From an uncultured Alphaproteobacteria bacterium (lineage in GTDB: Bacteria > Pseudomonadota > Alphaproteobacteria > Rs-D84), in NCBI GenBank assembly GCA_963931495.1, contig OZ007020.1, positions 573,880 to 637,879 on the forward strand: a stretch of DNA of 64,000 bases, written 5' to 3'. Shown piece by piece: positions 1,713 to 21,431 of this stretch (positions within the stretch are counted from its first letter, which is position 1; each line of letters begins with the position of its first letter). Position numbers and translations under genes: made by a program. The notes below the pieces were generated by a model. The model made no database searches, was not told the DNA's origin, and saw only the letters and a program-made list of their open reading frames with translations.

Positions 1713-4112
1713 ATGGCAGATGATATAAAGCAAATTCATGAACGTGAAGAAAAATGGCAACGCCGTTGGGCGGATGCCGGTGTGTTTACCCCCAAAAATG
1801 ATGGCAGCAAGACGCCGTTTTATATGTTGGCGGAATTTCCGTTTCCATCGGGCAACGGACTGACCGGGGGACATATGTTGATTTATTCCGGTTCGGACGT
1901 TATGGCGCGGTTTCGCCGTATGCAGGGCTATGATGTTCTGTTCCCGATGGGGTTTGATTCATTGGGAATTTCGGCGGAAAACTATGCCACGAAAATTGGC
2001 AAGCATCCGTCTGTGGTTGTGCGTGAACTGATTGAAAAATTTACGCACAGTATGATAAGCATGGGTTGGTCTATTGATTTGAAATCGCAAATTGCAACGT
2101 CTGACCCTGAATATATCAAATGGACCCAGTGGATGTTTATCCAGTTCTTTAATGCGGGGTTGGCGTATAAGTCTATGTTGCCGATGAACTGGTGTCCGAA
2201 TTGTCGCACCACGTTGACCAACGAAGAACTGGAAGATGGCAAATGCAATCGTTGTCATGGGCCGGTTGAAATTCGTGAAAAAATGCAGTGGAATCTGGCG
2301 ATTACTAAATATGCCGAACGTTTGTTGGATGATTTGAAATTGGTTGATTATCCGGAACGTGTAAAGCGTGACCAGATAAACTGGATTGGTAAATCCACCG
2401 GTGCGGATGTTGATTTTATGGTCGGTGACGATGTAATGACCGTTTATACCACACGTGTTGATACTATATTTGGTGCGACATTCTGTGCGATTGCACCGGA
2501 ACACAAATTGGTTGCCAAATGGCTGGCGGATGGTCGCATTAAAAATGCGGACGCGGTGCGTGCGTATATAAAACAATCGGCCGAAAAATCTGAATTTGAC
2601 CGGACGGACGCAACAAAAGAAAAAACAGGTGTGCGTTTGGACGGCATAATGGCGCGCAATCCATTTACAGGCGATGAAATCCCCGTATTTGTGGCGGACT
2701 ATGTATTGGTGAATTATGCGCATGGTACGATTATGGCTGTGCCGGCGCACGATGAACGCGACTGGGATTTTGCGAAAAAATTCGGTTTGAAAATTATTCC
2801 TGTGATTGATGGTGGTGAACCCGACAAAGTCTGGACCGGGGATGGCATGCATATTAATTCAGGATTTTTAGATGGTATGAACAAGGCCGACGCAATCGCT
2901 GCCGCGATTAAGTATGGTGCGGAACATGGGTTTGCCCGGCCGAAAACGCGGTTCAAAATGACCGATTGGGGGTTTTCGCGCCAGATGTATTGGGGCGAAC
3001 CAATTCCATTGGTGTATTGTGAAAAATGCGGTTGGGTGCCGGTGCCTGAATCTGAATTACCGTTGATGCAGCCGTATATGGAAAATTATCGCCCGACCGA
3101 GGACGGTGAAAGTCCCCTGGCCCGCGCGACAGATTGGGTTAATACCACGTGTCCAAAATGTGGCGCGCCCGCGCGACGCGAAACGGATACTATGCCGCAA
3201 TGGGCGGGGTCATCGTGGTATTATATGCGGTATCTGGATCCGCGTAATGACAAAGAATTTTGTTCGCGGGAACAAATGGAACGCTGGATGCCGGTAAATC
3301 ATTATAATGGCGGCAATGAACACAATACGCGTCATTTGATTTATTCGCGCTTTTGGCACAAGGCGTTATATGATTTGGGATTTGTAAATACTGTTGAACC
3401 GTATAAAAAGCGGACCACAAATGGTTTGCTGATGGGGTCGGATGGTAAAAAAATGTCTAAATCCGCCGGTAATGGATTCCAGGTTGATGAAATGGTGGCG
3501 CGCGTTGGGGCCGATGCTGCGCGTACGACAGTGTTATCGTTGGGGCCGTGGGATACGAATGTGAACTGGTCAGACGGTGCGCTGGCCGGGGTACAAAGAT
3601 TCCTGAAGCGCGTGGAAAATATGGCGGATAATCTGACCGATGATGTGATGACGTCCGAACAGGAACGTTTGGTTAATCAATTAATCGCAGATATGACAGA
3701 ACGACTGGAAAATATGCGGTTTAATACGGCGATTTCCGCGATGATGGAATTTATTAACCAGTTCAGTGGCACTATGCCCCGCCCTGTGTACGAAGTATTG
3801 ATTCAAATGTTGAACCCATTCGCACCGCATTTGACCGAAGAAATTTGGGAACGTTTAGGGCACGCGGATATGTTGGTGTTTCAACCGTGGCCAACATACG
3901 ACGCCGCAAAATTGGCGAAAACAACAATGACAATTGTTGTTTCGGTTAATGGTAAACGTGCGTCTGATTTTGTGGTGCCTGTTTCTGCCACAGAAGAAGA
4001 AATTGTTGATGCCGCCAAACAGGCCGCATCCAAAAAACTGGTCGGTGCCAGTATTATCAAAACAATTGTTGTACCGAACAAGTTGGTGAATTTTGTGGTT
4101 CGCAACAACTGA
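1713..4112 (+). CDS. leuS: Leucine--tRNA ligase
   Basis: 799 aa; class I aaRS HIGH-like (PFPSGNGLTGGHM) and KMSKS (KMSKSAGNG) motifs, PMGFDSLGISAE region and Zn-knuckle CPNC...CNRC typical of LeuRS. Confidence 0.88.
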   Translation: MADDIKQIHEREEKWQRRWADAGVFTPKNDGSKTPFYMLAEFPFPSGNGLTGGHMLIYSGSDVMARFRRMQGYDVLFPMGFDSLGISAENYATKIGKHPSVVVRELIEKFTHSMISMGWSIDLKSQIATSDPEYIKWTQWMFIQFFNAGLAYKSMLPMNWCPNCRTTLTNEELEDGKCNRCHGPVEIREKMQWNLAITKYAERLLDDLKLVDYPERVKRDQINWIGKSTGADVDFMVGDDVMTVYTTRVDTIFGATFCAIAPEHKLVAKWLADGRIKNADAVRAYIKQSAEKSEFDRTDATKEKTGVRLDGIMARNPFTGDEIPVFVADYVLVNYAHGTIMAVPAHDERDWDFAKKFGLKIIPVIDGGEPDKVWTGDGMHINSGFLDGMNKADAIAAAIKYGAEHGFARPKTRFKMTDWGFSRQMYWGEPIPLVYCEKCGWVPVPESELPLMQPYMENYRPTEDGESPLARATDWVNTTCPKCGAPARRETDTMPQWAGSSWYYMRYLDPRNDKEFCSREQMERWMPVNHYNGGNEHNTRHLIYSRFWHKALYDLGFVNTVEPYKKRTTNGLLMGSDGKKMSKSAGNGFQVDEMVARVGADAARTTVLSLGPWDTNVNWSDGALAGVQRFLKRVENMADNLTDDVMTSEQERLVNQLIADMTERLENMRFNTAISAMMEFINQFSGTMPRPVYEVLIQMLNPFAPHLTEEIWERLGHADMLVFQPWPTYDAAKLAKTTMTIVVSVNGKRASDFVVPVSATEEEIVDAAKQAASKKLVGASIIKTIVVPNKLVNFVVRNN

Positions 4113-4141: not shown

Positions 4142-4588
4142 TTAAGAGATTTTTTTCAGTCGGCGCACACGGCGTTCGTTTTCATCAAATGGACTTTCCA
4201 AAAATGCACGTGCGGTTAAAAATGATACTTCTATATCAATATCATCCGCGGCCAACGCCAATACGTTGATGTCATCGTGAAAACGATCATCGCGTGCCTG
4301 GTCCGGGCGGTCACAGCGTGACGCACGGATATGGCGATAACGATTGGCGGCGATTTGCATCCCGGCGCCTGTGCCACAAATTAATATTCCGCGTGATTTT
4401 TCGTCGTCAACCATTGCATCTGCCAGCGCTTTGGCAATGTCTGGAAAATCAACCGGGGTATTGGGGTCATCCGTCCCCAGGTTCACAACACTGTATCCGA
4501 TTGCGTTTAACATTTCTGTCAGGTATAACTTTACACCAACACCACGATGGTCGGCGGCGATATATAACTTTGATATTGTTTTATTCAT
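4142..4588 (-). CDS. rpiB: Ribose-5-phosphate isomerase B
   Basis: 148 aa; LYIAADHRG ... ICGTGAGMQIAANR motifs of RpiB/LacAB family. Confidence 0.85.
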   Translation of the reverse strand: MNKTISKLYIAADHRGVGVKLYLTEMLNAIGYSVVNLGTDDPNTPVDFPDIAKALADAMVDDEKSRGILICGTGAGMQIAANRYRHIRASRCDRPDQARDDRFHDDINVLALAADDIDIEVSFLTARAFLESPFDENERRVRRLKKIS

Positions 4589-4934
4589 CTTTTTTGCCCT
4601 TTCTTTTCGCCAATTTGCATTCCAGTCCCGTATTGCCGGTTATATTTAGTGTGTAATATGATAATGTTCCGGTCATTTGGGCATTGCTGAAAACATTTGC
4701 GGTATTGACAATTGCCGGACCATCCAGGGTGCCGTGTAAAAACAAGTTTGTTGCCGTGATTTTTCCGGCCACACGCCCGCCCCGCCCGATTACAACAGTA
4801 TCGGCGGTTATGTTTCCGATAACGTTACCGTGAATTTGCACAGAATGGTCGGTTTTTATGTCGCCCGTCAGTTTGCACCCGGCGCCAATAATTGTTGGTG
4901 ATGTTTTTTCTTTTGCGTTTGTAAATGCCAGCAT
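4581..4934 (-). CDS. Bactofilin (polymer-forming cytoskeletal protein, DUF583)
   Basis: 117 aa; beta-helical repeat pattern GDIKTDHSVQIHGNVIGNITADTVVIGRGGRVAGKITATNLFLHGTLDG typical of bactofilins/CcmA; overlaps rpiB start by 8 nt. Confidence 0.8.
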   Translation of the reverse strand: MLAFTNAKEKTSPTIIGAGCKLTGDIKTDHSVQIHGNVIGNITADTVVIGRGGRVAGKITATNLFLHGTLDGPAIVNTANVFSNAQMTGTLSYYTLNITGNTGLECKLAKRKGKKDE

Positions 4935-4935
4935 T

Positions 4936-6222
4936 TTATTCTTCCTTTACAAATTTTGTTGGGTCAAAAGGTACACCCTTGTACCGAATTTCATAGTGCA
5001 AGTGTGGCCCCGTAGAACGACCAGTTGAACCCGCCAGTCCAACAACAGTGCCTGGGCGTACCCAATCGCCACGCGTAACCATTATTTGCGACAGGTGGGC
5101 GTATAATGTTGTAAATCCCAACCCGTGGTCAATTTCAACCGTTGTGCCGTATCCAACGCGGTCACCCGCAGATACAACGCGACCGGGGGCAACCGCAAAC
5201 AATTCTGTACCAATTTTGCCGGCAAAATCAATACCGCGATGTTTCTTTTGTTCACTGGTAAATGGGTCGGTGCGTGTGCCGTACCGTGACGTTACGCGGA
5301 CATTTTCAACCGGCGCGCCAAGCGGTAATACGCGATCCAGTTTAGACAGACCGTTCCACAGTTCTAAATCATCAGCCAATTTTTGATATTTTGGATCCAA
5401 GTCTTTATCAAATTCAATTGGGCTGAACGCGGCGCCAACCAATGGATTAGAAAATTTATTCGCATTACGTATCAAAACTTTTTGTGTCAGCCCCAGTGAT
5501 GCAATTGTTGTATTGATGTTATTCATACTGGCGCGTAATGCGTCAATGTTTTCGGTGGCCAGTTTTGATACAGTATCAAATATCTGTGCATCGGCCGCCG
5601 CAACACTTTGCATTTGTTCCACTAATTGGGTGTTGCGTTTTTTCAGTTCCGCGTTTTCGGCACGCGTCAGTTCCAAATCAACAGATAATTCAGACAATTT
5701 GGTATGTTCGGGGGCATAGTCAGAATTTGTGAACATTTCGTTCAATCGCGTGCGCAGAAAATCCAGTTCGCCCCATGTTTTTAACTGGTCATTCATCAGG
5801 TTTTGTTTTTCGGATTCTGATAATTCAGACGCGTTTAATATCTTGTCATCAATTATATTCAAATTGCGCGTCAGTTCGTTATATTTTTCCATATATGTTT
5901 GCAAATCTGTCATTTGACGCACGTGCAAAGATTTCATTTCTTCCAGTTGCTGGGTGCGATGCTGTAACATTGGCCGGTGATAAATAAATACGTATGTTGA
6001 CCATGTTGCCCATATAACCAACCCAATCTTGCCGCAGAATTTGGTGAAACGCCAAAAACTGCTTTGCTGGAATGTATAAACGTTGCCACGTGGAATATCC
6101 ATCACCGTGAATTCACGTGGTGGAAACACACGGCATATGGCGCGCCACAGCGCACGAAACGGCGATGTTATAAACGCCCATAATGATGTAAAATATTTCG
6201 TTATAAAGTTTATCATATCCAC
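4936..6222 (-). CDS. M23 family metallopeptidase with N-terminal TM segment and coiled coil (EnvC/DipM/Csd-like)
   Basis: 428 aa; C-terminal HRGIDFAG ... HLHYEI M23 (LytM) motifs; long coiled-coil; 2 nt after bactofilin start. Confidence 0.8.
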   Translation of the reverse strand: MDMINFITKYFTSLWAFITSPFRALWRAICRVFPPREFTVMDIPRGNVYTFQQSSFWRFTKFCGKIGLVIWATWSTYVFIYHRPMLQHRTQQLEEMKSLHVRQMTDLQTYMEKYNELTRNLNIIDDKILNASELSESEKQNLMNDQLKTWGELDFLRTRLNEMFTNSDYAPEHTKLSELSVDLELTRAENAELKKRNTQLVEQMQSVAAADAQIFDTVSKLATENIDALRASMNNINTTIASLGLTQKVLIRNANKFSNPLVGAAFSPIEFDKDLDPKYQKLADDLELWNGLSKLDRVLPLGAPVENVRVTSRYGTRTDPFTSEQKKHRGIDFAGKIGTELFAVAPGRVVSAGDRVGYGTTVEIDHGLGFTTLYAHLSQIMVTRGDWVRPGTVVGLAGSTGRSTGPHLHYEIRYKGVPFDPTKFVKEE

Positions 6223-12646: not shown

Positions 12647-12758
12647 TTCTATGGAAATGGTAGCAAAATTGCAAAATTCAGGGCAAGTAAAATATGTGAT
12701 TATTTACAAGAATTCTTTCCCGCAGACTTTTGCACATCAATATGATAGCGTTGCCAGC

Positions 12759-13358
12759 ATGAATAAATCAAGACTTGAAGCGTTTAGTGATGGATTGTTT
12801 TCGGTTGTGATTACAATTATGGTGTTGGAATTAAATCCGCCTGGGGATGTTACGTGGCAATCACTGAAACCGCTGATACCCATATTTCTTAGTTATGTGT
12901 TAAGTTTTGTATATGGGGCAATTTTTTGGATAAATCATCATCATTTATTGGCGGCAACGCGACGGATAAACAGCGCTGTATTATGGGCGAATTTGCTGTT
13001 CTTGTTTTGGTTGTCGTTGATACCATTTTTTACCGCGTGGGTTGATGAAAATCATGCGGCACCAATACCGGTGGCGGCATATGGGTTGGCATTATTTATG
13101 GTTGTTGCATCGTACAGAATACTGGAAATTGTTTTGTTTCGTATTCATGATACAGATGCGTTGCTGGTGCGAATATTACGCCCAGGACGACGGGAAAAGT
13201 TTTCAATGGTGGCGTTTTTGTTGGCGGTGCCATTGGCGCTGGTACATCCGTTCATATCAATGGGGATATATATAGCCGTTGCCGCAATTTGGTTCTTGCC
13301 GGAACGGGGGCTGGAACGCGCGCTGATGCGGCGCGATATATGTGCCACGCAACAGTAA
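12759..13358 (+). CDS. TMEM175/DUF1211-family putative K+ channel
   Basis: MNKSRLEAFSDGLFSVVITIMVLEL (RxxxFSDGxxAxxxT signature of TMEM175 family); ORF track start 12651 is probably too far upstream. Confidence 0.65.
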   Translation: MNKSRLEAFSDGLFSVVITIMVLELNPPGDVTWQSLKPLIPIFLSYVLSFVYGAIFWINHHHLLAATRRINSAVLWANLLFLFWLSLIPFFTAWVDENHAAPIPVAAYGLALFMVVASYRILEIVLFRIHDTDALLVRILRPGRREKFSMVAFLLAVPLALVHPFISMGIYIAVAAIWFLPERGLERALMRRDICATQQ

Positions 13359-13401: not shown

Positions 13402-13412
13402 CCATGGCGTCG

Positions 13413-13499
13413 CGGATATGGCGGAACTGGTAGACGCGCTAGTTTCAGGTACTAGTGGCAGCAATGCCTTGGAGGTTCAAGTCCTCTTATCCGCACCAA
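13413..13499 (+). tRNA. tRNA-Leu (anticodon CAG), type II with long variable arm, CCA encoded
   Basis: Acceptor GCGGATA/TATCCGC, anticodon stem CTAGT/ACTAG with loop TTCAGGT. Confidence 0.9.
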
Positions 13500-13507
13500 A
13501 GTTTTTG

Positions 13508-13583
13508 GGGTTGTAGCTCAGTTGATAGAGCGCTACGTTCGCATCGTAGAGGTCGTGGGTTTGAGTCCCATCAGCTCCACCAA
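13508..13583 (+). tRNA. tRNA-Ala (anticodon CGC), G3:U70 identity pair present, CCA encoded
   Basis: Acceptor GGGGTTG/CAGCTCC (G3-U70 wobble), anticodon loop TTCGCAT, T-loop TTTGAGT. Confidence 0.88.
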
Positions 13584-13594
13584 AATTTTATTGC

Positions 13595-13616
13595 CGCCGT
13601 TTGGCGGTTTTTTATT
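13595..13616 (+). terminator. Hairpin + T-run after tRNA-Ala
   Basis: ccgcc-gttt-ggcgg followed by ttttttt. Confidence 0.5.
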
Positions 13617-13668
13617 GACAAGTATGCCACGCACGCGGTAGTATATTACGCAGATTTTTTAAGTTCTG

Positions 13669-13755
13669 GGGATATGGCGGAATGGTAGACGCTGAGGACT
13701 TAAAATCCTTTGGTCATTGCGACCGTGTGGGTTCAAGTCCCACTATCCCCACCAC
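13669..13755 (+). tRNA. tRNA-Leu (anticodon UAA), type II, CCA encoded
   Basis: Acceptor GGGGATA/TATCCCC, anticodon stem GAGGA/TCCTT loop CTTAAAA. Confidence 0.88.
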
Positions 13756-13777
13756 ACAGGTTTTAACAGTGGTATTG

Positions 13778-13854
13778 GATGAGTAGCTCAGTTGGTTAGA
13801 GCATCACGTTCACATCGTGGGGGTCGTTGGTTCAAGTCCAATCTCATCCACCAA
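13778..13854 (+). tRNA. tRNA-Val (anticodon CAC), CCA encoded
   Basis: Acceptor GGATGAG/CTCATCC, anticodon loop TTCACAT. Confidence 0.88.
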
Positions 13855-13863
13855 TGATAAAAA

Positions 13864-13889
13864 TGCCCGCCGTTTGGCGGGCATTTTGT
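13864..13889 (+). terminator. Rho-independent terminator after tRNA cluster
   Basis: atgcccgcc-gttt-ggcgggcat followed by tttt. Confidence 0.7.
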
Positions 13890-13904
13890 TTGAATCTGGG
13901 GGGG

Positions 13905-14225
13905 TTATCTTAATCCCTTGGCGCGACAACACGCGGATGCCGCACTGCGCCAATCAGAATATTGTTTATGCGGATTGCGCAAATCTTGCCACGGTTGCCA
14001 ACCATTGCATGACATGTTTTCGCCACGCTGGGTACATTTCACATAACGACGCAATGTGCAGGTTTGATTTGATACCTTGCCCGTGTCAGTGGTGCACTTT
14101 ACAACAACAGTTTGATTTTTTGCATCGTTTTTGCCCATTTCTTTGGATGACAATAACTGGTATGCATCAGCCGAGCATACAGATACAAAAATCATACACA
14201 ATGCGATAAAGTATTTTTTTACCAT
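13905..14225 (-). CDS. Small secreted Cys-containing protein, last gene of cpaA-led operon
   Basis: 106 aa; signal peptide MVKKYFIALCMIFVSVCSADA; 59 nt downstream of 570-aa gene. Confidence 0.45.
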   Translation of the reverse strand: MVKKYFIALCMIFVSVCSADAYQLLSSKEMGKNDAKNQTVVVKCTTDTGKVSNQTCTLRRYVKCTQRGENMSCNGWQPWQDLRNPHKQYSDWRSAASACCRAKGLR

Positions 14226-14284
14226 GGCGCGCTTCCTTTGTATTCAGATTATACAATATGTAAATAAAAAAATACAATTGGTTT

Positions 14285-15997
14285 TTATTCGGGATGGGTT
14301 TCGTGTGTTGTCCATGGTTCGTCATTCATAACCAGGTAATACAATTCGGCAAATTCTGTACCAGGGTTACGTATCACGGGGCGGACAACAAAAATATCAA
14401 CATTGCATGCATGATTGCCCTGCTCTGATTGTATTGCCATTAAATTAAAATGAAACTTATCTGCGAAATCCATTGCTTGCAGATACGCGGCATCGTCGTC
14501 AGACGGACTGACCGAATCACCGGCCCACATCAACCACATTCCATGGTTTACAACATTTTCTTGGCCCTGTAAATCATCGGCCGACAGCAATGTCAGTGGT
14601 TTGAATTCAATGTCGTTTGTGAATTCACCAGTGCTGGTTTCGGTCCAATCATACATACCCCCAACAAATCGCAGGGCGCCGTATATAAATCCGCCAGTCC
14701 TTTCCATACGGGCCAATGCGCCAATATTAGACATTGTTGATTGAAATAACCAATCACGAATACGCCCAGAAAATGAACTGCTGCGTGCAATTTTTGTTGC
14801 GTTACGAATTTGGCGCCCACCAGTGTTGGCCGCCCGAACCGCACGCCATGCACGTGCGACAATGTTTCCGCGTTGTGCCGTGCGTAATCCGCGCAATGCC
14901 CGCCGGTATTGATTTAATGATGCGAATGTGTCTGATGCCTGGCGATAGCGACGCACGTCATCAGTATTTTCCAATGTGCGCATTGTTTGTGCGTAATTTT
15001 CAACTTCGGATAATTTGCGCGCGTACCCCGTTGCGTCGGCCACACGGTCAATTTGATTCAATTCGGACATTGCGCGCGCGTATTGTTGCGATGTGCGAAT
15101 ATAATTTGTTACAGATTCTGTTTGGCGCAATGTGCGCATTGTTTGGCTCAGTCCGTTTAACGTGCGGGATGCGCGTGCGGCCTTGGTCGTTCCCAGAATC
15201 GCAGTCCCAGTTCCCATTGTTGCAACGGTTATCGCAACGTCCAGTCCAATTTCCATATATGATATCCACCGTAAATCAGCGTCGCCGGCAACGTAATAAT
15301 CATTTGTGTCATCTGGGATATTCACGGTTTCGTGCATCGCCAGATTTATCATTTCGCGATTACCGGCAATTGCAGATTTGCTGGTGCATCGGTTACCATG
15401 CGGAAATATTTTATCAATGTTGTCATTTATGTACTGCATTGATATGGTGTTGTTTTTGCCGGGACCGATAAAGTCATCCAGACTGCCTGATTCAACAACC
15501 ATTATTGCATACCATGCAGGGTCGGTATTCGTCCAAATGGAATCGTCGCCAGGCCCGCCAATAACTGGATTTGGATTATTGTCAGATGCCAGTGTGCGTC
15601 GTTCGGCCAATTTTATACGCTGGTTCAATATCTTTGGTTGTGTTTCATAGTTTATTTTGATATTGCGGCCAGTTGGAAATGTGTATTGTATCGTTTGTAA
15701 TTTTATTGTTTCGTCATCAGATGCATTGGCAAATTCAGGGCATGCAATTACGTGGCGCAGTACATCAGCATTTTGAAATGTTTGATATATCCATTGTTGG
15801 ATTTTTGTTTCATCGTCTGATGCGTCAACGGTGTTTGCTGTTTTAGCCAGTGCATTTGCAAATACAGTGGTGGAACACGATGTGTCTGGTTGTGCTGTGT
15901 CGCGGTGTATGTCGGGTATTGGTGTATTATCTGCGCAAAGCGCCACATTTGTGGCGCCAACAAAAATAACAAAAAATGTCAAAATTTTTTGCAGCAT
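14285..15997 (-). CDS. Secreted protein with internal degenerate repeats (TMRTLRQTE.../AQTMRTLENTDD...), unknown function
   Basis: 570 aa; signal peptide MLQKILTFFVIFVGATNVALCA; 3-nt gap to upstream gene. Confidence 0.6.
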   Translation of the reverse strand: MLQKILTFFVIFVGATNVALCADNTPIPDIHRDTAQPDTSCSTTVFANALAKTANTVDASDDETKIQQWIYQTFQNADVLRHVIACPEFANASDDETIKLQTIQYTFPTGRNIKINYETQPKILNQRIKLAERRTLASDNNPNPVIGGPGDDSIWTNTDPAWYAIMVVESGSLDDFIGPGKNNTISMQYINDNIDKIFPHGNRCTSKSAIAGNREMINLAMHETVNIPDDTNDYYVAGDADLRWISYMEIGLDVAITVATMGTGTAILGTTKAARASRTLNGLSQTMRTLRQTESVTNYIRTSQQYARAMSELNQIDRVADATGYARKLSEVENYAQTMRTLENTDDVRRYRQASDTFASLNQYRRALRGLRTAQRGNIVARAWRAVRAANTGGRQIRNATKIARSSSFSGRIRDWLFQSTMSNIGALARMERTGGFIYGALRFVGGMYDWTETSTGEFTNDIEFKPLTLLSADDLQGQENVVNHGMWLMWAGDSVSPSDDDAAYLQAMDFADKFHFNLMAIQSEQGNHACNVDIFVVRPVIRNPGTEFAELYYLVMNDEPWTTHETHPE

Positions 15998-16000
15998 TAA

Positions 16001-17188
16001 TTACAGTCCTGATACACTGCCGATTGATTGACCACATGTATCAATGATGCGTTGGCGTTCGCTTGATATACGCCGTATCAATTCATCATATGGATCTTGT
16101 GTCGGATTATTCGGCTTTGTATATGGTGGAACCGGTACCGTTGTGCCCGATTGAACACATGTATTACCAGAACGTGTATAGCCATCAATACATGTCCATG
16201 TATAGCAAATATTTGTGGTGTCTGGAATATATTTTATATATGATTCAATTCCCACCGCAGGTTCTGTTTCGCCGGCACAGAAACGGGTTGTGCATTCGGG
16301 GGTCCAAAAATCGTTGCGGAACATGCTTTGCGGCCAAGATGCTTCGGTATCAGACCATGTGGTGTTATCTTTCATTTTCCCTTGCAAGCATTGGCGGACC
16401 ATTGGTTCAACAGGTGTCGGTGCAGCGGCATCGGCGGGTGCGCCACAAAACATATAATCACCAATGTTGGCCAGCCGTTCGCCCTTGTTGAATACGGTGT
16501 TGCAACATGTAAATTGTCTGGTTATCGGGTCGTATAGACAATCTGTTTCTGAAAATAATTGGGATCCAGCAACCAGTCCACCAACCAGTGCGCCGGCACC
16601 AACGGCGGCCCCATATCCAATTTGACCAAGCACAGGTATTGCATTGACCACAGCGGCCCCACCCGCAGCGGCGGTGGCGCCACTGACCACGCCCTGGACA
16701 ACGTCGCCCCACGAATGTTCATCGTTACCAGATGCGGCATTTATTACACCGGCGGTTCCCGCCACTGCGCCAACCGCACCCAGTGCCCCGGTTGCAAGAT
16801 TGCGTGCATTTATGCGGGGGCCGCCCTGGTTTTGTGGGGATGTGTTCCCCATGGGTGGAACAACGGGTGGAACATTGCCGGCGGATGTGGCCCCGGCGGC
16901 AACATTTGTGTTACCTGTGACAGATGCGCCCGATGTTCGTTGTTGGGCCGGGATTGATTCATCAATGGATACAATTTTTGACCCGGCGGTGGTCGGTGCG
17001 TTAAGGCGCATCCCAGTGTCGCGATTACGATAATTTAATGTTTGGCCATCGTCACCAACGGTTAATGTTGCCTGGCGGGTTGTTTGCTGCCATGCATCTG
17101 GATTAGAAATATTTGATATATCCAGTGCAAACGCCGATGATGTTGCGAATAATGCCACGACAGTGAAAGAAGCAATTTGATGTTTCAT
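16001..17188 (-). CDS. Secreted protein with glycine-zipper (GxxxG/AxxxG) region and C-terminal Cys-rich domain
   Basis: 395 aa; signal peptide MKHQIASFTVVALFATSSAFA; GALGAVGAVAGTAGV...GAAVGAGALVGGLVAG glycine zipper. Confidence 0.6.
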   Translation of the reverse strand: MKHQIASFTVVALFATSSAFALDISNISNPDAWQQTTRQATLTVGDDGQTLNYRNRDTGMRLNAPTTAGSKIVSIDESIPAQQRTSGASVTGNTNVAAGATSAGNVPPVVPPMGNTSPQNQGGPRINARNLATGALGAVGAVAGTAGVINAASGNDEHSWGDVVQGVVSGATAAAGGAAVVNAIPVLGQIGYGAAVGAGALVGGLVAGSQLFSETDCLYDPITRQFTCCNTVFNKGERLANIGDYMFCGAPADAAAPTPVEPMVRQCLQGKMKDNTTWSDTEASWPQSMFRNDFWTPECTTRFCAGETEPAVGIESYIKYIPDTTNICYTWTCIDGYTRSGNTCVQSGTTVPVPPYTKPNNPTQDPYDELIRRISSERQRIIDTCGQSIGSVSGL

Positions 17189-17191
17189 ATT

Positions 17192-18097
17192 TTAATACTT
17201 TCCATTTAATTGGGCCAGACAATCTGAAATTGGAATCCCAGAATCACGACATTTTTGCGCCGTTGCCAAATCTGCATCAATTATAGACAGGCGGGCGATT
17301 TCCTTGGTACAGAATGCGTTTACGCGGTTATTGTAATCTTCTTCGCTTTCAATGGTTATTGTGCGATATGCGGATGCGTCTTTGTACGGGGCGTATCCTG
17401 CCGCGTCATTTTGCATGCGTTCGGTAAATGATAAATCCGCCGCCGTTGTGGGAAATGCCGTTGCCACCAACACAGAATCACCGGTGCTGTTCGCAGATTG
17501 TAAATTTTTTAATTCTTGTTCGCGTTGTAATTTTTCCAGTGCCCATGGTTCGCCGTTCCATACCGGTAACTGTTGCTGGTACGGGTTTTGAAACTGAACC
17601 CCCTGTTGCGTTGCCGCGGTATTCGGACCGGTTGCCGTTGGGAATGCAACCGTCGTTCCAGTTGGTGCCGCAATCGCATTTTCAGATACGTATTTTTCAA
17701 ATTCAGTATCAATATATCCGCCACATGGTGTTACATAGTTATGATTTGGTAAACTGGCCAATTGGACGGTCAGTGTCGGGCGGGCGTCATCCACGTCCAC
17801 ACCAACACAATTATTGCGCGACGCACAGTATGATGCCACCAGTGCACCGACAATCGCCTGGCAATCAGCGGTTGATACGTCAGTACCCTGGGCATATACG
17901 GGAACTGGCATGCGTTGGTTATACGGACTGTCCGGGTTCCAGAATGGATTTGATGAATAATTCTGTACGTTCTGTATCTGGCCATACTGGGAAAATGGCG
18001 ACGGTGTCGTTGTTGTATTAATCGTTGTCGCAGTGGCCGAATTCATTATCCCGACAATAAATGCGCACACAGATGCAGATAAAATACGTATTTTCAT
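17192..18097 (-). CDS. Secreted protein, unknown function
   Basis: 301 aa; signal peptide MKIRILSASVCAFIVGIMNSATA. Confidence 0.6.
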   Translation of the reverse strand: MKIRILSASVCAFIVGIMNSATATTINTTTTPSPFSQYGQIQNVQNYSSNPFWNPDSPYNQRMPVPVYAQGTDVSTADCQAIVGALVASYCASRNNCVGVDVDDARPTLTVQLASLPNHNYVTPCGGYIDTEFEKYVSENAIAAPTGTTVAFPTATGPNTAATQQGVQFQNPYQQQLPVWNGEPWALEKLQREQELKNLQSANSTGDSVLVATAFPTTAADLSFTERMQNDAAGYAPYKDASAYRTITIESEEDYNNRVNAFCTKEIARLSIIDADLATAQKCRDSGIPISDCLAQLNGKY

Positions 18098-18130
18098 TCC
18101 CCCCGTCCATTTTTTCTTTGTTTCATAGTA

Positions 18131-18598
18131 TTATATCAAAAACCAGATTATAATTAAAGACAAAATTCCACCACCGATAAAGAAAGGTGCAAACGGGATG
18201 TATTTTTGTTTTCGGGTTCCGCCCCATAACAATCCGGCAATACATGCCAAGGCCAGCGCGATTGCCAGTCCTGTTATCCCCAACCATAATCCGCCCACAG
18301 ATATTAATTTTATATCCCCCATTCCGATCGGAATATCGGACTTGTTGTGGTGTTTGTTTCGCATGCTGAATATCAAACCAATTACGGTGGTTAATACGTA
18401 TCCAAAGATAGCGGCGATTACGGCGTCGGCAATATCAATCGGCCACGGAAAGAAATTTATGATTGTTAATCCAATCAGCATCATCGGAAACAGGTATGCG
18501 TCGGGGATAATTCTGCGCCGCCAATCAGCAACAGAAATGCGCCATGCGCACCATGCGGCTGTGACCAGTAATAAAACAAAAAAGATGGTATAAAACAT
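18131..18598 (-). CDS. cpaA: Tad/Flp-type prepilin peptidase (A24 aspartic peptidase, CpaA/TadV-like, no methyltransferase domain)
   Basis: 155 aa polytopic; catalytic Asp motifs RIIPD and GMGDIKLISVGGLWLG (cf. GGGDVKL of A24 family); first gene of a 5-gene minus-strand operon. Confidence 0.75.
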   Translation of the reverse strand: MFYTIFFVLLLVTAAWCAWRISVADWRRRIIPDAYLFPMMLIGLTIINFFPWPIDIADAVIAAIFGYVLTTVIGLIFSMRNKHHNKSDIPIGMGDIKLISVGGLWLGITGLAIALALACIAGLLWGGTRKQKYIPFAPFFIGGGILSLIIIWFLI

Positions 18599-18671
18599 AT
18601 TTTTCCCCCTTGCCTTTCGATTCGAATTTATGTTACAATTATGTCAGTATGTATAACAAGGATTTTTTGAA

Positions 18672-19199
18672 ATGAGTAAAGGCTGGGACAGCGCAACACT
18701 GAAAAAATTAAAAGCATTAACAGGCAAAGGGTTGTCAACATCTGAAATTGGCAGACGTTTGGGAATGTCTAAGAATGCGGTTGTTGGTAAATTGAACAGA
18801 TTGGGATGGAATTCCAAGGCGGGCGGTGTCAGTGCCACAACCAAGGCGCCGGTGTCCAAAAAGGCGGACAAGGTTACATCAAAAAAAGGTGCCAGTACAA
18901 AGAAAACATCGGTCGCCAAACAATCAACTAAATCTGGGGGCGCGGGCAAAAAAGCGTCTGGGGTGGCGTCGTCACGCGGGACGCGTTCTGTGAATAATAA
19001 TCTGGCAATGCACCAGCGTATCATCCAGCATTCATTAGAAATGGCGAACTTAAAGCCAAATCAATGTCGTTGGCCAATCGGTGATCCGGATTCCGAAGGG
19101 TTCCATTTTTGTGGTGCGCCTGTATTTGTTGGCAAGCCGTATTGTTACGAACATTGCAAACAGGCATATCAATTTACACCGCCAAAGAAAAAGCAATAA
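18672..19199 (+). CDS. gcrA: Cell-cycle transcriptional regulator GcrA
   Basis: 175 aa; N-terminal WDSATLKKLKALTGKGLSTSEIGRRLGMSKNAVVGKLNRLG and C-terminal CRWPIGDP...FHFCGA motifs characteristic of GcrA. Confidence 0.85.
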   Translation: MSKGWDSATLKKLKALTGKGLSTSEIGRRLGMSKNAVVGKLNRLGWNSKAGGVSATTKAPVSKKADKVTSKKGASTKKTSVAKQSTKSGGAGKKASGVASSRGTRSVNNNLAMHQRIIQHSLEMANLKPNQCRWPIGDPDSEGFHFCGAPVFVGKPYCYEHCKQAYQFTPPKKKQ

Positions 19200-21431
19200 G
19201 TGGGGTGTCATTATATGACAAGCGAGAGGGAAAATATGAATTCTGTTTTAACACCGCGGGAATATGACATTGCCGGCAATTCTTTTCGTGCGTACCGTGA
19301 TTCAGATGGCAAGTTGGTGTTCGTTATTGATAATACGTTAAATGAACGTAAAACGAATGTGATGCTGGTTATAAATCCTGTGGGTGACAGAAAATGGGAT
19401 GATATTTTGGCGAATGATTACGCCGTTGATTTAGAAACAGTTCGCCCAAAGAAAGATAATAAATATCAAAAACTGGATATTGAATACAGCGGATTGGCGG
19501 AATATGATGATTTAATTCGTGCATACGAAAACGGCGATGATTTAACCAGTGCGCTGGGGGCATTGGCGCGTTTTCGGGATGCGTCGGTGCGTCGGGCGGC
19601 GATGGAACGGTTGTCGGTGGCCGAAGCAAATGCCGCGCGTGCGCGCGATACAATATTAAAAACAAATGATTCAATTGCCGAATTGCGTGTGCGGTTGCGT
19701 CAGTTGCGTCGTACATTGGCAAATCAAAAAAATCAAATTGGGCGCGAGCCAACAAAACAATCTGCATCAAAAATATTACGAACAGATGCGCAAATTGATG
19801 CCATAAATGAAAAATTGCGTCGCGCGGAACGTCGCCTGGACAATGCCCAGCGGCGGTTGGTTGTCGCTGATGAAGATGCCGCAGTGGCACGGAATATTTT
19901 GGCATGTGACCCGGTCGCGGGGGATTCTGGGGTGGGCGTAACGTCGGTGATTGATGTTCTGCGTCCGCATGATGTGGATGTTCAAAACCAAAATTTGCCG
20001 GTAATTCAGCCGCGTAATGATTTGATTGCAACAACCCCGGTCCCAGATGCGGATGTATCGGATGTGGATGCACCGGATGGCGATGTTGTTGACCCAGGTG
20101 CGTCTGGTGATGCGGAATATAATGTTGACTATGACCAGGATTTTAATGTAAATATAACAGAACAACCAAAGGCGGATATGATGGCCGAAGAAGATGTAAA
20201 ACCACTGTTTGATAAAAATCCAGAAATTCTGGACGAAGAAATTGCGTTTAAGCCAATTCAGTTTGGTGTTTCCAGTCCGGTGTCGGATGAACAAAATCAA
20301 TCAGACGTGTCGTCTGGGGATAATAATGATGTTTTATCAGGGGCGCCATTATCATTTACGCCGCCGGCGGAAAGTAAGCCCAGTGTAACGAATGATGCGT
20401 CGCCATCAGATAATCAATACGCGCAACAACCGTCCCCTGTGCTGGACAGTTTGTCTGCGGTTGGTGCAACCCCGGCCCCAGAAACAAATGTAGAACAAAC
20501 AAACGATGTTGTACAACCGGCGGCGCCGTCGGCGGCCAACAGACCGGCACCTGTGATGCCAAATGTTGCGCCGGAAAATACGTTGGGCAACAACATTCCA
20601 AACAATAATTATGTTAATGAAAATTCACAGACTGTGCCTGCACCGGCTGGGGGTGCGCCAATTGCAAATGCGCCCCGCCCTGTGTCGCCAATAACTGGTA
20701 CACCGGCACCAACAAATCCGGCACCACGTCGTCCGACGGCAATATATTACATAATGTTAGTATTGTTGATTGCGTTATCGGTATTTACGTTGTGGCTGTA
20801 CCAGAAAAATACGAATGATGGTTCGCCTGACTTGACGGCAACGGTACCGCCAGCCGAAGAAAATGTTGCGGTGGATGTGGTTGTTGATGACGTGGACAGC
20901 CCGTTTGTGCCAACCATAACAACAACGGACACGGAACCAGATGTGGTCACCACGGTTGTCGCAGATGTGGCCCCGGATACTGGGGACATGGTGGAATCGG
21001 TTGTTGCACCGGAAACTGTCCAGGATGTTGACATTGAACCGGTCGCGGAATTAATTCCAGAACCAGAACCGGTTGTCGTCCCGGAACCTGTGCAAGATGT
21101 CCCGCCGGTCATAGAAACAACAACCGTGGCACCGGTTGTGACGCCGGCACCGATACTGGAACCAGAACCAGTTGTTATTGAAAGCGAAGAAGAAATATTG
21201 GCAAACAAGCCGGCATATAATGTTTCACAAAATGAAAACATGTTTGTTGCCGACCCAGAATATGAAACAGAAACACAGTATACTGTGACGCAAGATTTGC
21301 CAAAATGCCCAGACGGTTCGGCACCCGATATGAATGGGTGTTGCCCGGGCGAGATATATACGGATCTGGGGGCGGCTGGGTTTAATTGTTGTCCGGAAAC
21401 GGGCGGTGATTGTTTCCCGCCATTGTTATAA
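19200..21431 (+). CDS. Large single-pass membrane protein: N-terminal coiled coil, long Pro/Asn-rich disordered region, TM helix, acidic PEPEPV-type repeats, C-terminal CC-rich knot (alternative start at 19236)
   Basis: 743 aa; TM IYYIMLVLLIALSVFTLWLY; repeats VVPEPVQDV / EPEPVVI; C-term KCPDGSAPDMNGCCPGEIYTDLGAAGFNCCPETGGDCF; starts 1 nt after gcrA stop. Confidence 0.6.
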   Translation: MGCHYMTSERENMNSVLTPREYDIAGNSFRAYRDSDGKLVFVIDNTLNERKTNVMLVINPVGDRKWDDILANDYAVDLETVRPKKDNKYQKLDIEYSGLAEYDDLIRAYENGDDLTSALGALARFRDASVRRAAMERLSVAEANAARARDTILKTNDSIAELRVRLRQLRRTLANQKNQIGREPTKQSASKILRTDAQIDAINEKLRRAERRLDNAQRRLVVADEDAAVARNILACDPVAGDSGVGVTSVIDVLRPHDVDVQNQNLPVIQPRNDLIATTPVPDADVSDVDAPDGDVVDPGASGDAEYNVDYDQDFNVNITEQPKADMMAEEDVKPLFDKNPEILDEEIAFKPIQFGVSSPVSDEQNQSDVSSGDNNDVLSGAPLSFTPPAESKPSVTNDASPSDNQYAQQPSPVLDSLSAVGATPAPETNVEQTNDVVQPAAPSAANRPAPVMPNVAPENTLGNNIPNNNYVNENSQTVPAPAGGAPIANAPRPVSPITGTPAPTNPAPRRPTAIYYIMLVLLIALSVFTLWLYQKNTNDGSPDLTATVPPAEENVAVDVVVDDVDSPFVPTITTTDTEPDVVTTVVADVAPDTGDMVESVVAPETVQDVDIEPVAELIPEPEPVVVPEPVQDVPPVIETTTVAPVVTPAPILEPEPVVIESEEEILANKPAYNVSQNENMFVADPEYETETQYTVTQDLPKCPDGSAPDMNGCCPGEIYTDLGAAGFNCCPETGGDCFPPLL

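Follow-up and report, generated by a model that had tools for sequence, protein, structure and literature searches.

A prepilin-type peptidase gene at the head of a conserved operon for predicted Sec-exported envelope proteins in the gut order Rs-D84

What does a prepilin-type peptidase do at a locus where its closest gene neighbours do not encode pilins? To our knowledge, prepilin peptidases are regarded as reliable markers of type IV filaments, and only proteins with class III signals are known as their substrates. The question is raised by a stretch of DNA of 64,000 nucleotides (nt) from an uncultured alphaproteobacterium of the order Rs-D84 (contig OZ007020.1 of assembly GCA_963931495.1, positions 573,880 to 637,879 of the forward strand; hereafter, the window), in which a gene of the A24 peptidase family is followed by four genes for secreted proteins. 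An earlier note on this DNA had described the arrangement and had proposed either that the four proteins form a novel peptidase-dependent surface structure or that a short pilin gene had escaped annotation. Its observation was confirmed by the present analysis, while its interpretation was partly supported. The answer that we prefer, and that we hold tentatively, is that a canonical peptidase processes filament subunits whose genes lie elsewhere, and that its co-expression partner is an envelope module of the same surface structure. The operon and its five genes, with lengths in amino acids (aa) and the coordinates of the open reading frames (ORFs), are as follows.

13905-18598, minus strand: operon of five genes separated by gaps of 33, 3, 3 and 59 nt, diverging from gcrA
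18131-18598, minus strand: A24 (GxGD) aspartyl prepilin-type peptidase, 155 aa (Pfam PF01478)
17192-18097, minus strand: P301, 301 aa, with a Sec signal; the constant gene after the peptidase
16001-17188, minus strand: P395, 395 aa, with a Sec signal; the variable third slot of the operon
14285-15997, minus strand: P570, 570 aa, with a Sec signal
13905-14225, minus strand: P106, 106 aa, with a Sec signal; always the last gene of the operon

The five packed minus-strand genes of the earlier note were found where it had placed them, all ORF coordinates and the gaps of 3-59 nt being reproduced, and they are predicted to be co-transcribed. The terminator scan revealed no terminator-like site between the five genes on the operon strand and one within the peptidase ORF; the counts of the promoter and terminator scans in the window were at chance level. 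Genes are densely packed throughout the window. The note had also reported that no pilin, secretin or ATPase gene lies close by, and the annotation of the window and of the 10 kb to its left and right likewise contains no Tad, type IV pilus or type II secretion domain. For the wider searches, 81 kb of the source contig were used (810,552-891,926 of the 958,617 bp of ENA ERZ21564551 s287.ctg000449c), around 91% of the genome lying outside this section. The window corresponds to roughly 815-879 kb of that ENA contig, in which the exact P570 sequence is present.

The peptidase scored 57.3 bits with PF01478, whose curated cut-off is 26.5 (E 2.3e-15), over profile positions 4-103 of 104, and the two aspartate motifs that had been read from the letters were present, with the catalytic residues D33 in RRIIPD and D95 in GMGDIKL. 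Both the profile and the two-Asp/GxGD pattern thus place it in the A24 family. D33, D95 (in G[MLF]GD[IV]K) and the segment IPFAPFF were invariant in 20 diverse orthologues of 55-68% identity, and RRIIPD was seen in nearly all of 76 loci, a few carrying HRLIPD, QIIPD or RHIIPD instead. Hydropathy analysis indicated a single domain with about five hydrophobic segments and no additional domain. Given the invariance of the catalytic motifs and the single-domain architecture, the sequence indicates that the peptidase is very likely active. A total of 621 homologues were retrieved; among the 120 listed, identity ranged from 56 to 98%, and those with a name were prepilin or A24 peptidases of Alphaproteobacteria or Candidatus Enterousia and, in one case, of Muribaculaceae. 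The "Tad-type" label of the earlier note rests on size and single-domain architecture only. BLASTP against CpaA2 of plasmid pSymA aligned 17 residues around GxGD (E 0.001), and a hidden Markov model (HMM) of the Rs-D84 peptidases scored the same CpaA2 at 11 bits. Neither a tblastn search of 72,556 plasmids nor a comparison with PDB sequences gave a real match to the peptidase, and a literature search for orphan prepilin peptidases found nothing relevant. In many genomes a frame antisense to gcrA (18599-19024, minus strand, in the window) has no stop over the 100-170 codons that precede the peptidase start. Longest-ORF calls therefore make the peptidase 260-340 aa long, most likely through an artefact of composition rather than a true N-terminal extension.

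The four proteins encoded after the peptidase do not look like class III substrates of the enzyme. In about 80 orthologues of each, the N-terminus is an n-h-c Sec signal ending in AxA whose sequence is variable, and conservation begins at position +1 of the predicted signal peptidase I site in all four. Examples of this junction are ANA/YQVLSSKELG in P106 and AMA/TTFP..FSQYGQIQNVQNY in P301, the bar marking the predicted cut. Variable Sec signals followed by an onset of conservation just after AxA show that none of the four is a prepilin. The suggestion that they might be atypical class III substrates was accordingly dropped on the evidence of the orthologue N-termini; ordinary Sec signals on these proteins were one half of what the earlier note had named as speaking against its proposal. 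The four are best described as predicted ordinary Sec/signal-peptidase-I-exported, cysteine-rich envelope proteins.

The arrangement is not a peculiarity of one genome. The features that flank the operon in the window, and to which its conservation has to be compared, are the following.

18599-18671, no strand: divergent promoter region (spacer) of 73 nt, common to gcrA and the peptidase
18672-19199, plus strand: gcrA, cell-cycle sigma-70 cofactor family (PF07750, 3.6e-30; NCBIfam NF050816, 4.7e-20, below its cut-off)
19200-21431, plus strand: P743, a single-pass membrane protein always found after gcrA (743 aa from a GTG start; 731 aa in the public call)
13412-13853, plus strand: four tRNA genes (Leu-CAG, Ala-CGC, Leu-TAA, Val-CAC), convergent on the end of the operon and variable among relatives

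The earlier note had advised that conservation of the operon be examined in relatives. This was done with tblastn and domain HMMs. The loci comprised 80 from GTDB species genomes, 3 others and 40 from metagenomes in which the flanks were long enough, and the same order was found in every one of them: gcrA followed by P743 in one direction and, in the other, the peptidase, a gene with the P301 N-domain, the variable slot, P570, an optional gene and P106. The optional gene is a lysozyme in some relatives; a GH108 lysozyme belongs to the operon in about a third of them, and the window's own operon has no lysozyme gene. Of 116 loci, 114 retain the junction between the peptidase and P301, where the two genes are a median of 23 nt apart, and gcrA adjoined the peptidase divergently in all related loci. 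Identity to the window proteins in these loci was 46-68% for the peptidase, 51-75% for P570 and 63-87% for P106, which is the best conserved of the four downstream proteins. The operon is fixed at one chromosomal position in all of about 120 loci, and around it the genes for tmem175, a hydrolase, CorA and an ABC transporter, as well as the tRNA genes, come and go among relatives. In GTDB the relatives come from uncultured Alphaproteobacteria of the gut and include several Candidatus Enterousia, a group that lies within Rs-D84 (PMC12306168). Members of the order are described as having genomes under about 1 Mb and as lacking flagella, respiration and standard transporters, and dependence on a partner is suspected (PMC12306168). 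On the sampling above, the operon appears to be confined to this reduced-genome gut order and seemingly universal in it.

No family match was found for any of the four downstream proteins in Pfam, NCBIfam or PHROGs, and BLASTP among the window's own proteins detected no paralogy. The architecture of P301 was read from the orthologue alignment: an N-domain at residues 33-260 with four invariant cysteines, which ends in a motif of about 50 aa, FPxTxxDxSF..Y.PY...AY (residues 210-258). Its AlphaFold2 (AF2) model (pLDDT 69.7) is confident for no more than a small helical core at 70-140, and the best-conserved stretch, residues 33-70, is predicted to be disordered. P395 consists of an N-domain, three glycine-zipper-like segments rich in Gly and Ala (131-212) and a Cys-rich C-domain (211-390). 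In P570 the N-domain (40-240) is globular. After it come a helix of weak hydrophobicity (250-268), a region of helical hairpins rich in Arg (272-434; 30 Lys and Arg against 12 Asp and Glu in 168 residues) and an alpha/beta C-domain (460-570), and P570 has conserved cysteines at C41, C86, C204 and C531. Its hairpin region contains a repeat in two copies (284-320 and 336-378, with QTMRTL at 285 and 337), so that both the glycine zipper of P395 and the internal repeats of P570 reported from the letters alone were borne out. The AF2 model of P570 (pLDDT 70.1, pTM 0.59) shows the N- and C-domains as globular around long helical hairpins. P106 carries 8 cysteines. In an exhaustive HMMER search through 1.84 billion representatives, the P570 family amounted to no more than 126 clusters (50% identity).

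The relatives are more informative about what these proteins may do, since their domains are found in several combinations. The distant members of the P570 family are paralogues from the same clade that stand in the third slot instead of P395; elsewhere this slot holds a P570 paralogue of about 500 aa, a fusion to P301, or no gene matching the domain models. Many P570 paralogues are fused to a complete P301 N-domain, and other fusions of this N-domain were found with the P395 C-domain, with a GH108 plus PG_binding_3 lysozyme, with a CPL1-like domain and with C-terminal regions of no known family. In relatives, moreover, 31 proteins encoded between P570 and P106 start their mature chain with the P301 motif of about 50 aa; Pfam analysis of seven of these motif-bearing proteins gave five GH108 enzymes, one M23 peptidase and one 382-aa protein without a match. 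The motif may be a shared peptide by which cell-wall hydrolases are docked or targeted. The fusions and the replacements in the third slot together argue that P301, P395 and P570 form one functional module linked to peptidoglycan hydrolysis. With P106, they would make up a domain-shuffling envelope module of new protein families, apparently restricted to Rs-D84 and seemingly universal in it. As a separate observation, in one relative (L091) an M23 endopeptidase (2037-3080, plus strand) and a GH108 lysozyme (13824-14969, plus strand) both start, after the signal, with the P301 motif of about 50 aa.

A constant N-terminal domain with changing C-terminal partners also invites a quite different explanation, which we consider improbable: that the operon is an attack or feeding kit, in which the P301 N-domain delivers swappable effectors (a lysozyme, a glycine-zipper pore former, the P570 core) against partner bacteria in the manner of polymorphic toxins or pesticin-type bacteriocins, with P106 as a candidate inhibitor or immunity factor. 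The exchange of C-terminal domains, GH108 plus PG_binding_3 among them, is what would be expected of polymorphic toxins, the most conserved stretch of P301 is the one predicted to be disordered, and a partner-dependent lifestyle has been proposed for the order (PMC12306168). However, the locus is a fixed core locus with 50-87% orthologue identity across the order and not a strain-variable toxin island; P106 is present with or without the lysozyme, and no immunity gene was identified. Moreover, no export route beyond Sec was seen, and the window's own copy has no recognisable toxin domain.

How the operon might be controlled was considered from the spacer that it shares with gcrA, which the earlier note had taken as a sign of cell-cycle-linked expression because it contains GATTC. 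This GANTC site (18619-18623) lies at the centre of an 11-bp palindrome, TTCGATTCGAA, at 18616-18626, unique in the window. Conservation of the spacer is striking: in 70 of 73 loci the sequence CGA[A/T]TCGAA is found about 25 nt upstream of the peptidase ATG, followed by AAGGCAAGGGGGAAAAAT. The GANTC has A as its central base in 40 of these loci and T in the other 30, the pattern expected of a GANTC site. This is the fixed GANTC with a free central base that characterises GcrA/CcrM-type promoters, and the proposed regulatory link to gcrA gains support from its retention. The palindrome falls inside the spacer of a promoter-like sequence for gcrA (TTGCCT-18-TACAAT, 18610-18639, plus strand). 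On the peptidase strand it comes directly after an overlapping -10-like element, CATAAT here and TGnTATAAT in 18 relatives; the 73-nt spacer also holds the peptidase Shine-Dalgarno sequence, AAGGGGG. It must be noted that one GANTC per 73 nt is unremarkable by itself, the window containing 157 sites against 161 +/- 13.5 expected, without enrichment, and that no ccrM gene was found within the 81 kb. The conserved palindrome may serve gcrA, the operon or both, and methylation or cell-cycle control of the spacer promoters is plausible from these sequences. The 157 sites of the window comprise 154 GAATC/GATTC, 3 GAGTC and no GACTC, which may reflect base composition.

Under the explanation that we tentatively prefer, the peptidase would cut the class III leaders of type IV filament subunits whose genes lie beyond the 81 kb and belong to a Tad, type IV pilus or type II secretion system. 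The reason for its co-expression with the envelope module would be that the two contribute to a single structure at the cell surface or across the envelope, one that the exported proteins would build or pass through. Expression would start from the promoter region common to gcrA, where the GANTC palindrome suggests control by methylation or the cell cycle.

Several results weigh against this explanation, the search for its substrates first. A class III signal has a hydrophilic leader ending in Gly, about 21 hydrophobic residues and Glu at +5, and is cut on the cytoplasmic side (PMC4471445), while Flp pilins bear GXXXXEY (PMC10934763). Six-frame scans with a strict Flp pattern (G....EY) and with looser class III patterns, in which the 81 kb were read with all alternative starts, revealed no Flp-like or class III ORF in the window, in the 81 kb or in 83 to about 160 related loci. 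The Flp pattern did recover the genuine Flp pilin of pSymA as a positive control, and the scans of the 81 kb otherwise picked up nothing but stretches inside P743, P395 and unrelated membrane proteins. No Pfam domain of Tad, type IV pilus or type II secretion proteins was present on the genes called in the 81 kb. In addition, the whole region from P743/gcrA through P861 (a further exported protein) to lpxB is broadly syntenic across the clade, so that adjacency lends a functional link no more than moderate support, less than it would among unrelated genomes. An outgroup that has the peptidase or the module in another context was not found; the hunt in JGI metagenomes returned the same clade only, at no less than 51% identity, since the search patterns were clade-specific. 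The only genomic survey of Rs-D84 reports type IV pili for a different lineage only (PMC12306168). Finally, Foldseek found no PDB match for the P301 model and none in PDB or among the BFVD viral structures for the P570 model; the role of the four proteins is one that we infer from their architecture. Profile HMMs of the P570 and P301 families likewise found no match among PDB sequences. The unannotated short pilin of the earlier note, for its part, found no support in the scans of the window, the 81 kb and the related loci, which all came back empty with a pattern that works on the control. None of the parts of a Tad/Flp locus, that is, an Flp gene beside the peptidase, a CpaF/TadA ATPase, TadB/C or a CpaC/RcpA secretin, was found within the 81 kb.

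The synteny of the wider region also speaks for an alternative account, which in our judgement is somewhat unlikely: the peptidase would do housekeeping work on pilins or pseudopilins whose genes lie elsewhere and would have no common job with its neighbours, an unrelated clade-specific envelope set, the two having been left side by side because a compact, slowly rearranging genome kept its ancestral gene order and a common promoter. The absence of a class III signal from all four proteins and the dense packing of genes throughout the window agree with this. The flanks and the interior of the operon have nonetheless been rearranged repeatedly, through changes in the third slot, fusions, lysozyme insertion and the turnover of tmem175 and tRNA genes, and the junction of the peptidase with P301 survives in almost all loci at a distance of about 23 nt.

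If, on the other hand, the empty scans mean that Rs-D84 has no type IV filament machine at all, the enzyme would be a divergent GxGD protease that matures a neighbour. It would be recruited to process Sec-exported, membrane-anchored parts of a lineage-specific envelope apparatus (the P570 family, P395 or P743), which in turn recruits peptidoglycan hydrolases, cutting at an internal basic-hydrophobic junction in a way that resembles the intramembrane cut of presenilin or signal peptide peptidase. Candidate sites would be the helix at about 245-268 of the P570 family, the zipper of P395 after PRINARNLA and the transmembrane helix of P743 after APRRPTA. We regard this as unlikely. It would account for catalytic residues that are invariant in genomes of about 1 Mb for which no pili have been reported, for the constant linkage of the peptidase to the module, and for its remoteness from genuine CpaA, with 17 residues aligned at GxGD and no match in the plasmid search; those internal segments are, besides, the only basic-then-hydrophobic junctions in the 81 kb. 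Against it, A24 enzymes are known to cut only N-terminal class III leaders after Gly (PMC4471445), and no candidate site has the Gly-1/Glu+5 pattern. The P570 helix is weakly hydrophobic and of uncertain topology, and the pilin search covers 81 kb, not the whole genome. Were this reading true, a bacterial homologue of the prepilin peptidases would for the first time have substrates other than pilins, and the apparatus might mediate contact with, or feeding on, partner cells.

Other genes of the neighbourhood deserve mention. P861 (10061-12646, minus strand) has 861 aa, a Sec signal, 30 cysteines and no family match; it is conserved at 53-66% identity beside lpxB across the clade and carries CxxGYxxxGxC-type motifs like those of the P395 C-domain. 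P743 has a long N-terminal part that precedes its transmembrane helix (515-533, following APRRPTA) and a Cys-rich motif, CCxGE, in its C-terminal part. Its orthologues keep RPVSPITG...(K/R)KP before this helix, and in most of them the C-terminal CxDGxxPDxxGCCxGE...CCxxxxxxCFPP is nearly invariant. P743 may be part of the same divergent gene pair. A homologue of the TMEM175 potassium-channel family (12651-13358, plus strand; PF06736, 4.7e-27) is only partially distributed among relatives, in which its position and orientation vary. Further away, at about 4580-6222 (minus strand), an M23 peptidase gene (426 aa) lies directly upstream of a bactofilin gene near lpxA/lpxB, a cell-shape and envelope neighbourhood.

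The significance of the locus lies in an intact peptidase that persists in genomes of about 1 Mb, in which all genes are under pressure, and that is always joined to four exported proteins of no known family. Two outcomes can be envisaged: these gut bacteria may hide a pilus or secretion system in which the four proteins are accessories or cargo, or the substrate range of the A24 family may be wider than believed. The arrangement is unusual and order-specific, and its interest would rise sharply if the genomes prove to be without a type IV filament system. In either case the module proteins could serve as markers of, and entry points to, the surface biology of Candidatus Enterousia.

The locus shares features with several known systems. 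Type II secretion cargo enters the periplasm via Sec, often has disulfides and needs a prepilin peptidase indirectly, through the pseudopilus, a logic by which it would make sense to transcribe a peptidase gene together with those for Cys-rich proteins with Sec signals; unlike in type II secretion, no GspD, E, F or G-K was seen within the 81 kb. GspO-type peptidases usually have an extra N-terminal domain, which is absent here. The GH108 muramidases of Alphaproteobacteria assist envelope-spanning machines, as with SagA of Brucella, and operons of the relatives likewise encode GH108 plus PG_binding_3 proteins. In contrast to SagA, the lysozyme of the relatives carries the N-terminal motif shared with P301 or the full P301 N-domain, and no secretion machine was identified. 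With the GxGD intramembrane proteases (FlaK/PibD, presenilin, signal peptide peptidase) the enzyme has in common the GxGD motif and a polytopic membrane architecture. Archaeal PibD also processes proteins that are not filament subunits, the sugar-binding proteins of the bindosome (PMC4471445); these substrates have N-terminal class III signals, whereas the proteins described here do not. A further comparison is with the Tad/Flp loci (TadV/CpaA/CtpB; Aggregatibacter, Caulobacter and flp-1/flp-2 of Sinorhizobium). They differ in that no Flp (GXXXXEY), CpaB/C/D/E/F, TadB/C or TadE/F was found in the 81 kb, while Flp and CpaA2 of the pSymA control are about 3.4 kb apart, and in that the downstream genes here encode Sec-signal proteins without a known family. 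As in those loci, however, the peptidase is a short single-domain A24 enzyme with two Asp motifs (155 aa here, 176 aa in pSymA CpaA2, with PF01478 matches of similar strength), and in both cases it is encoded by the first or second gene of an operon for envelope proteins.

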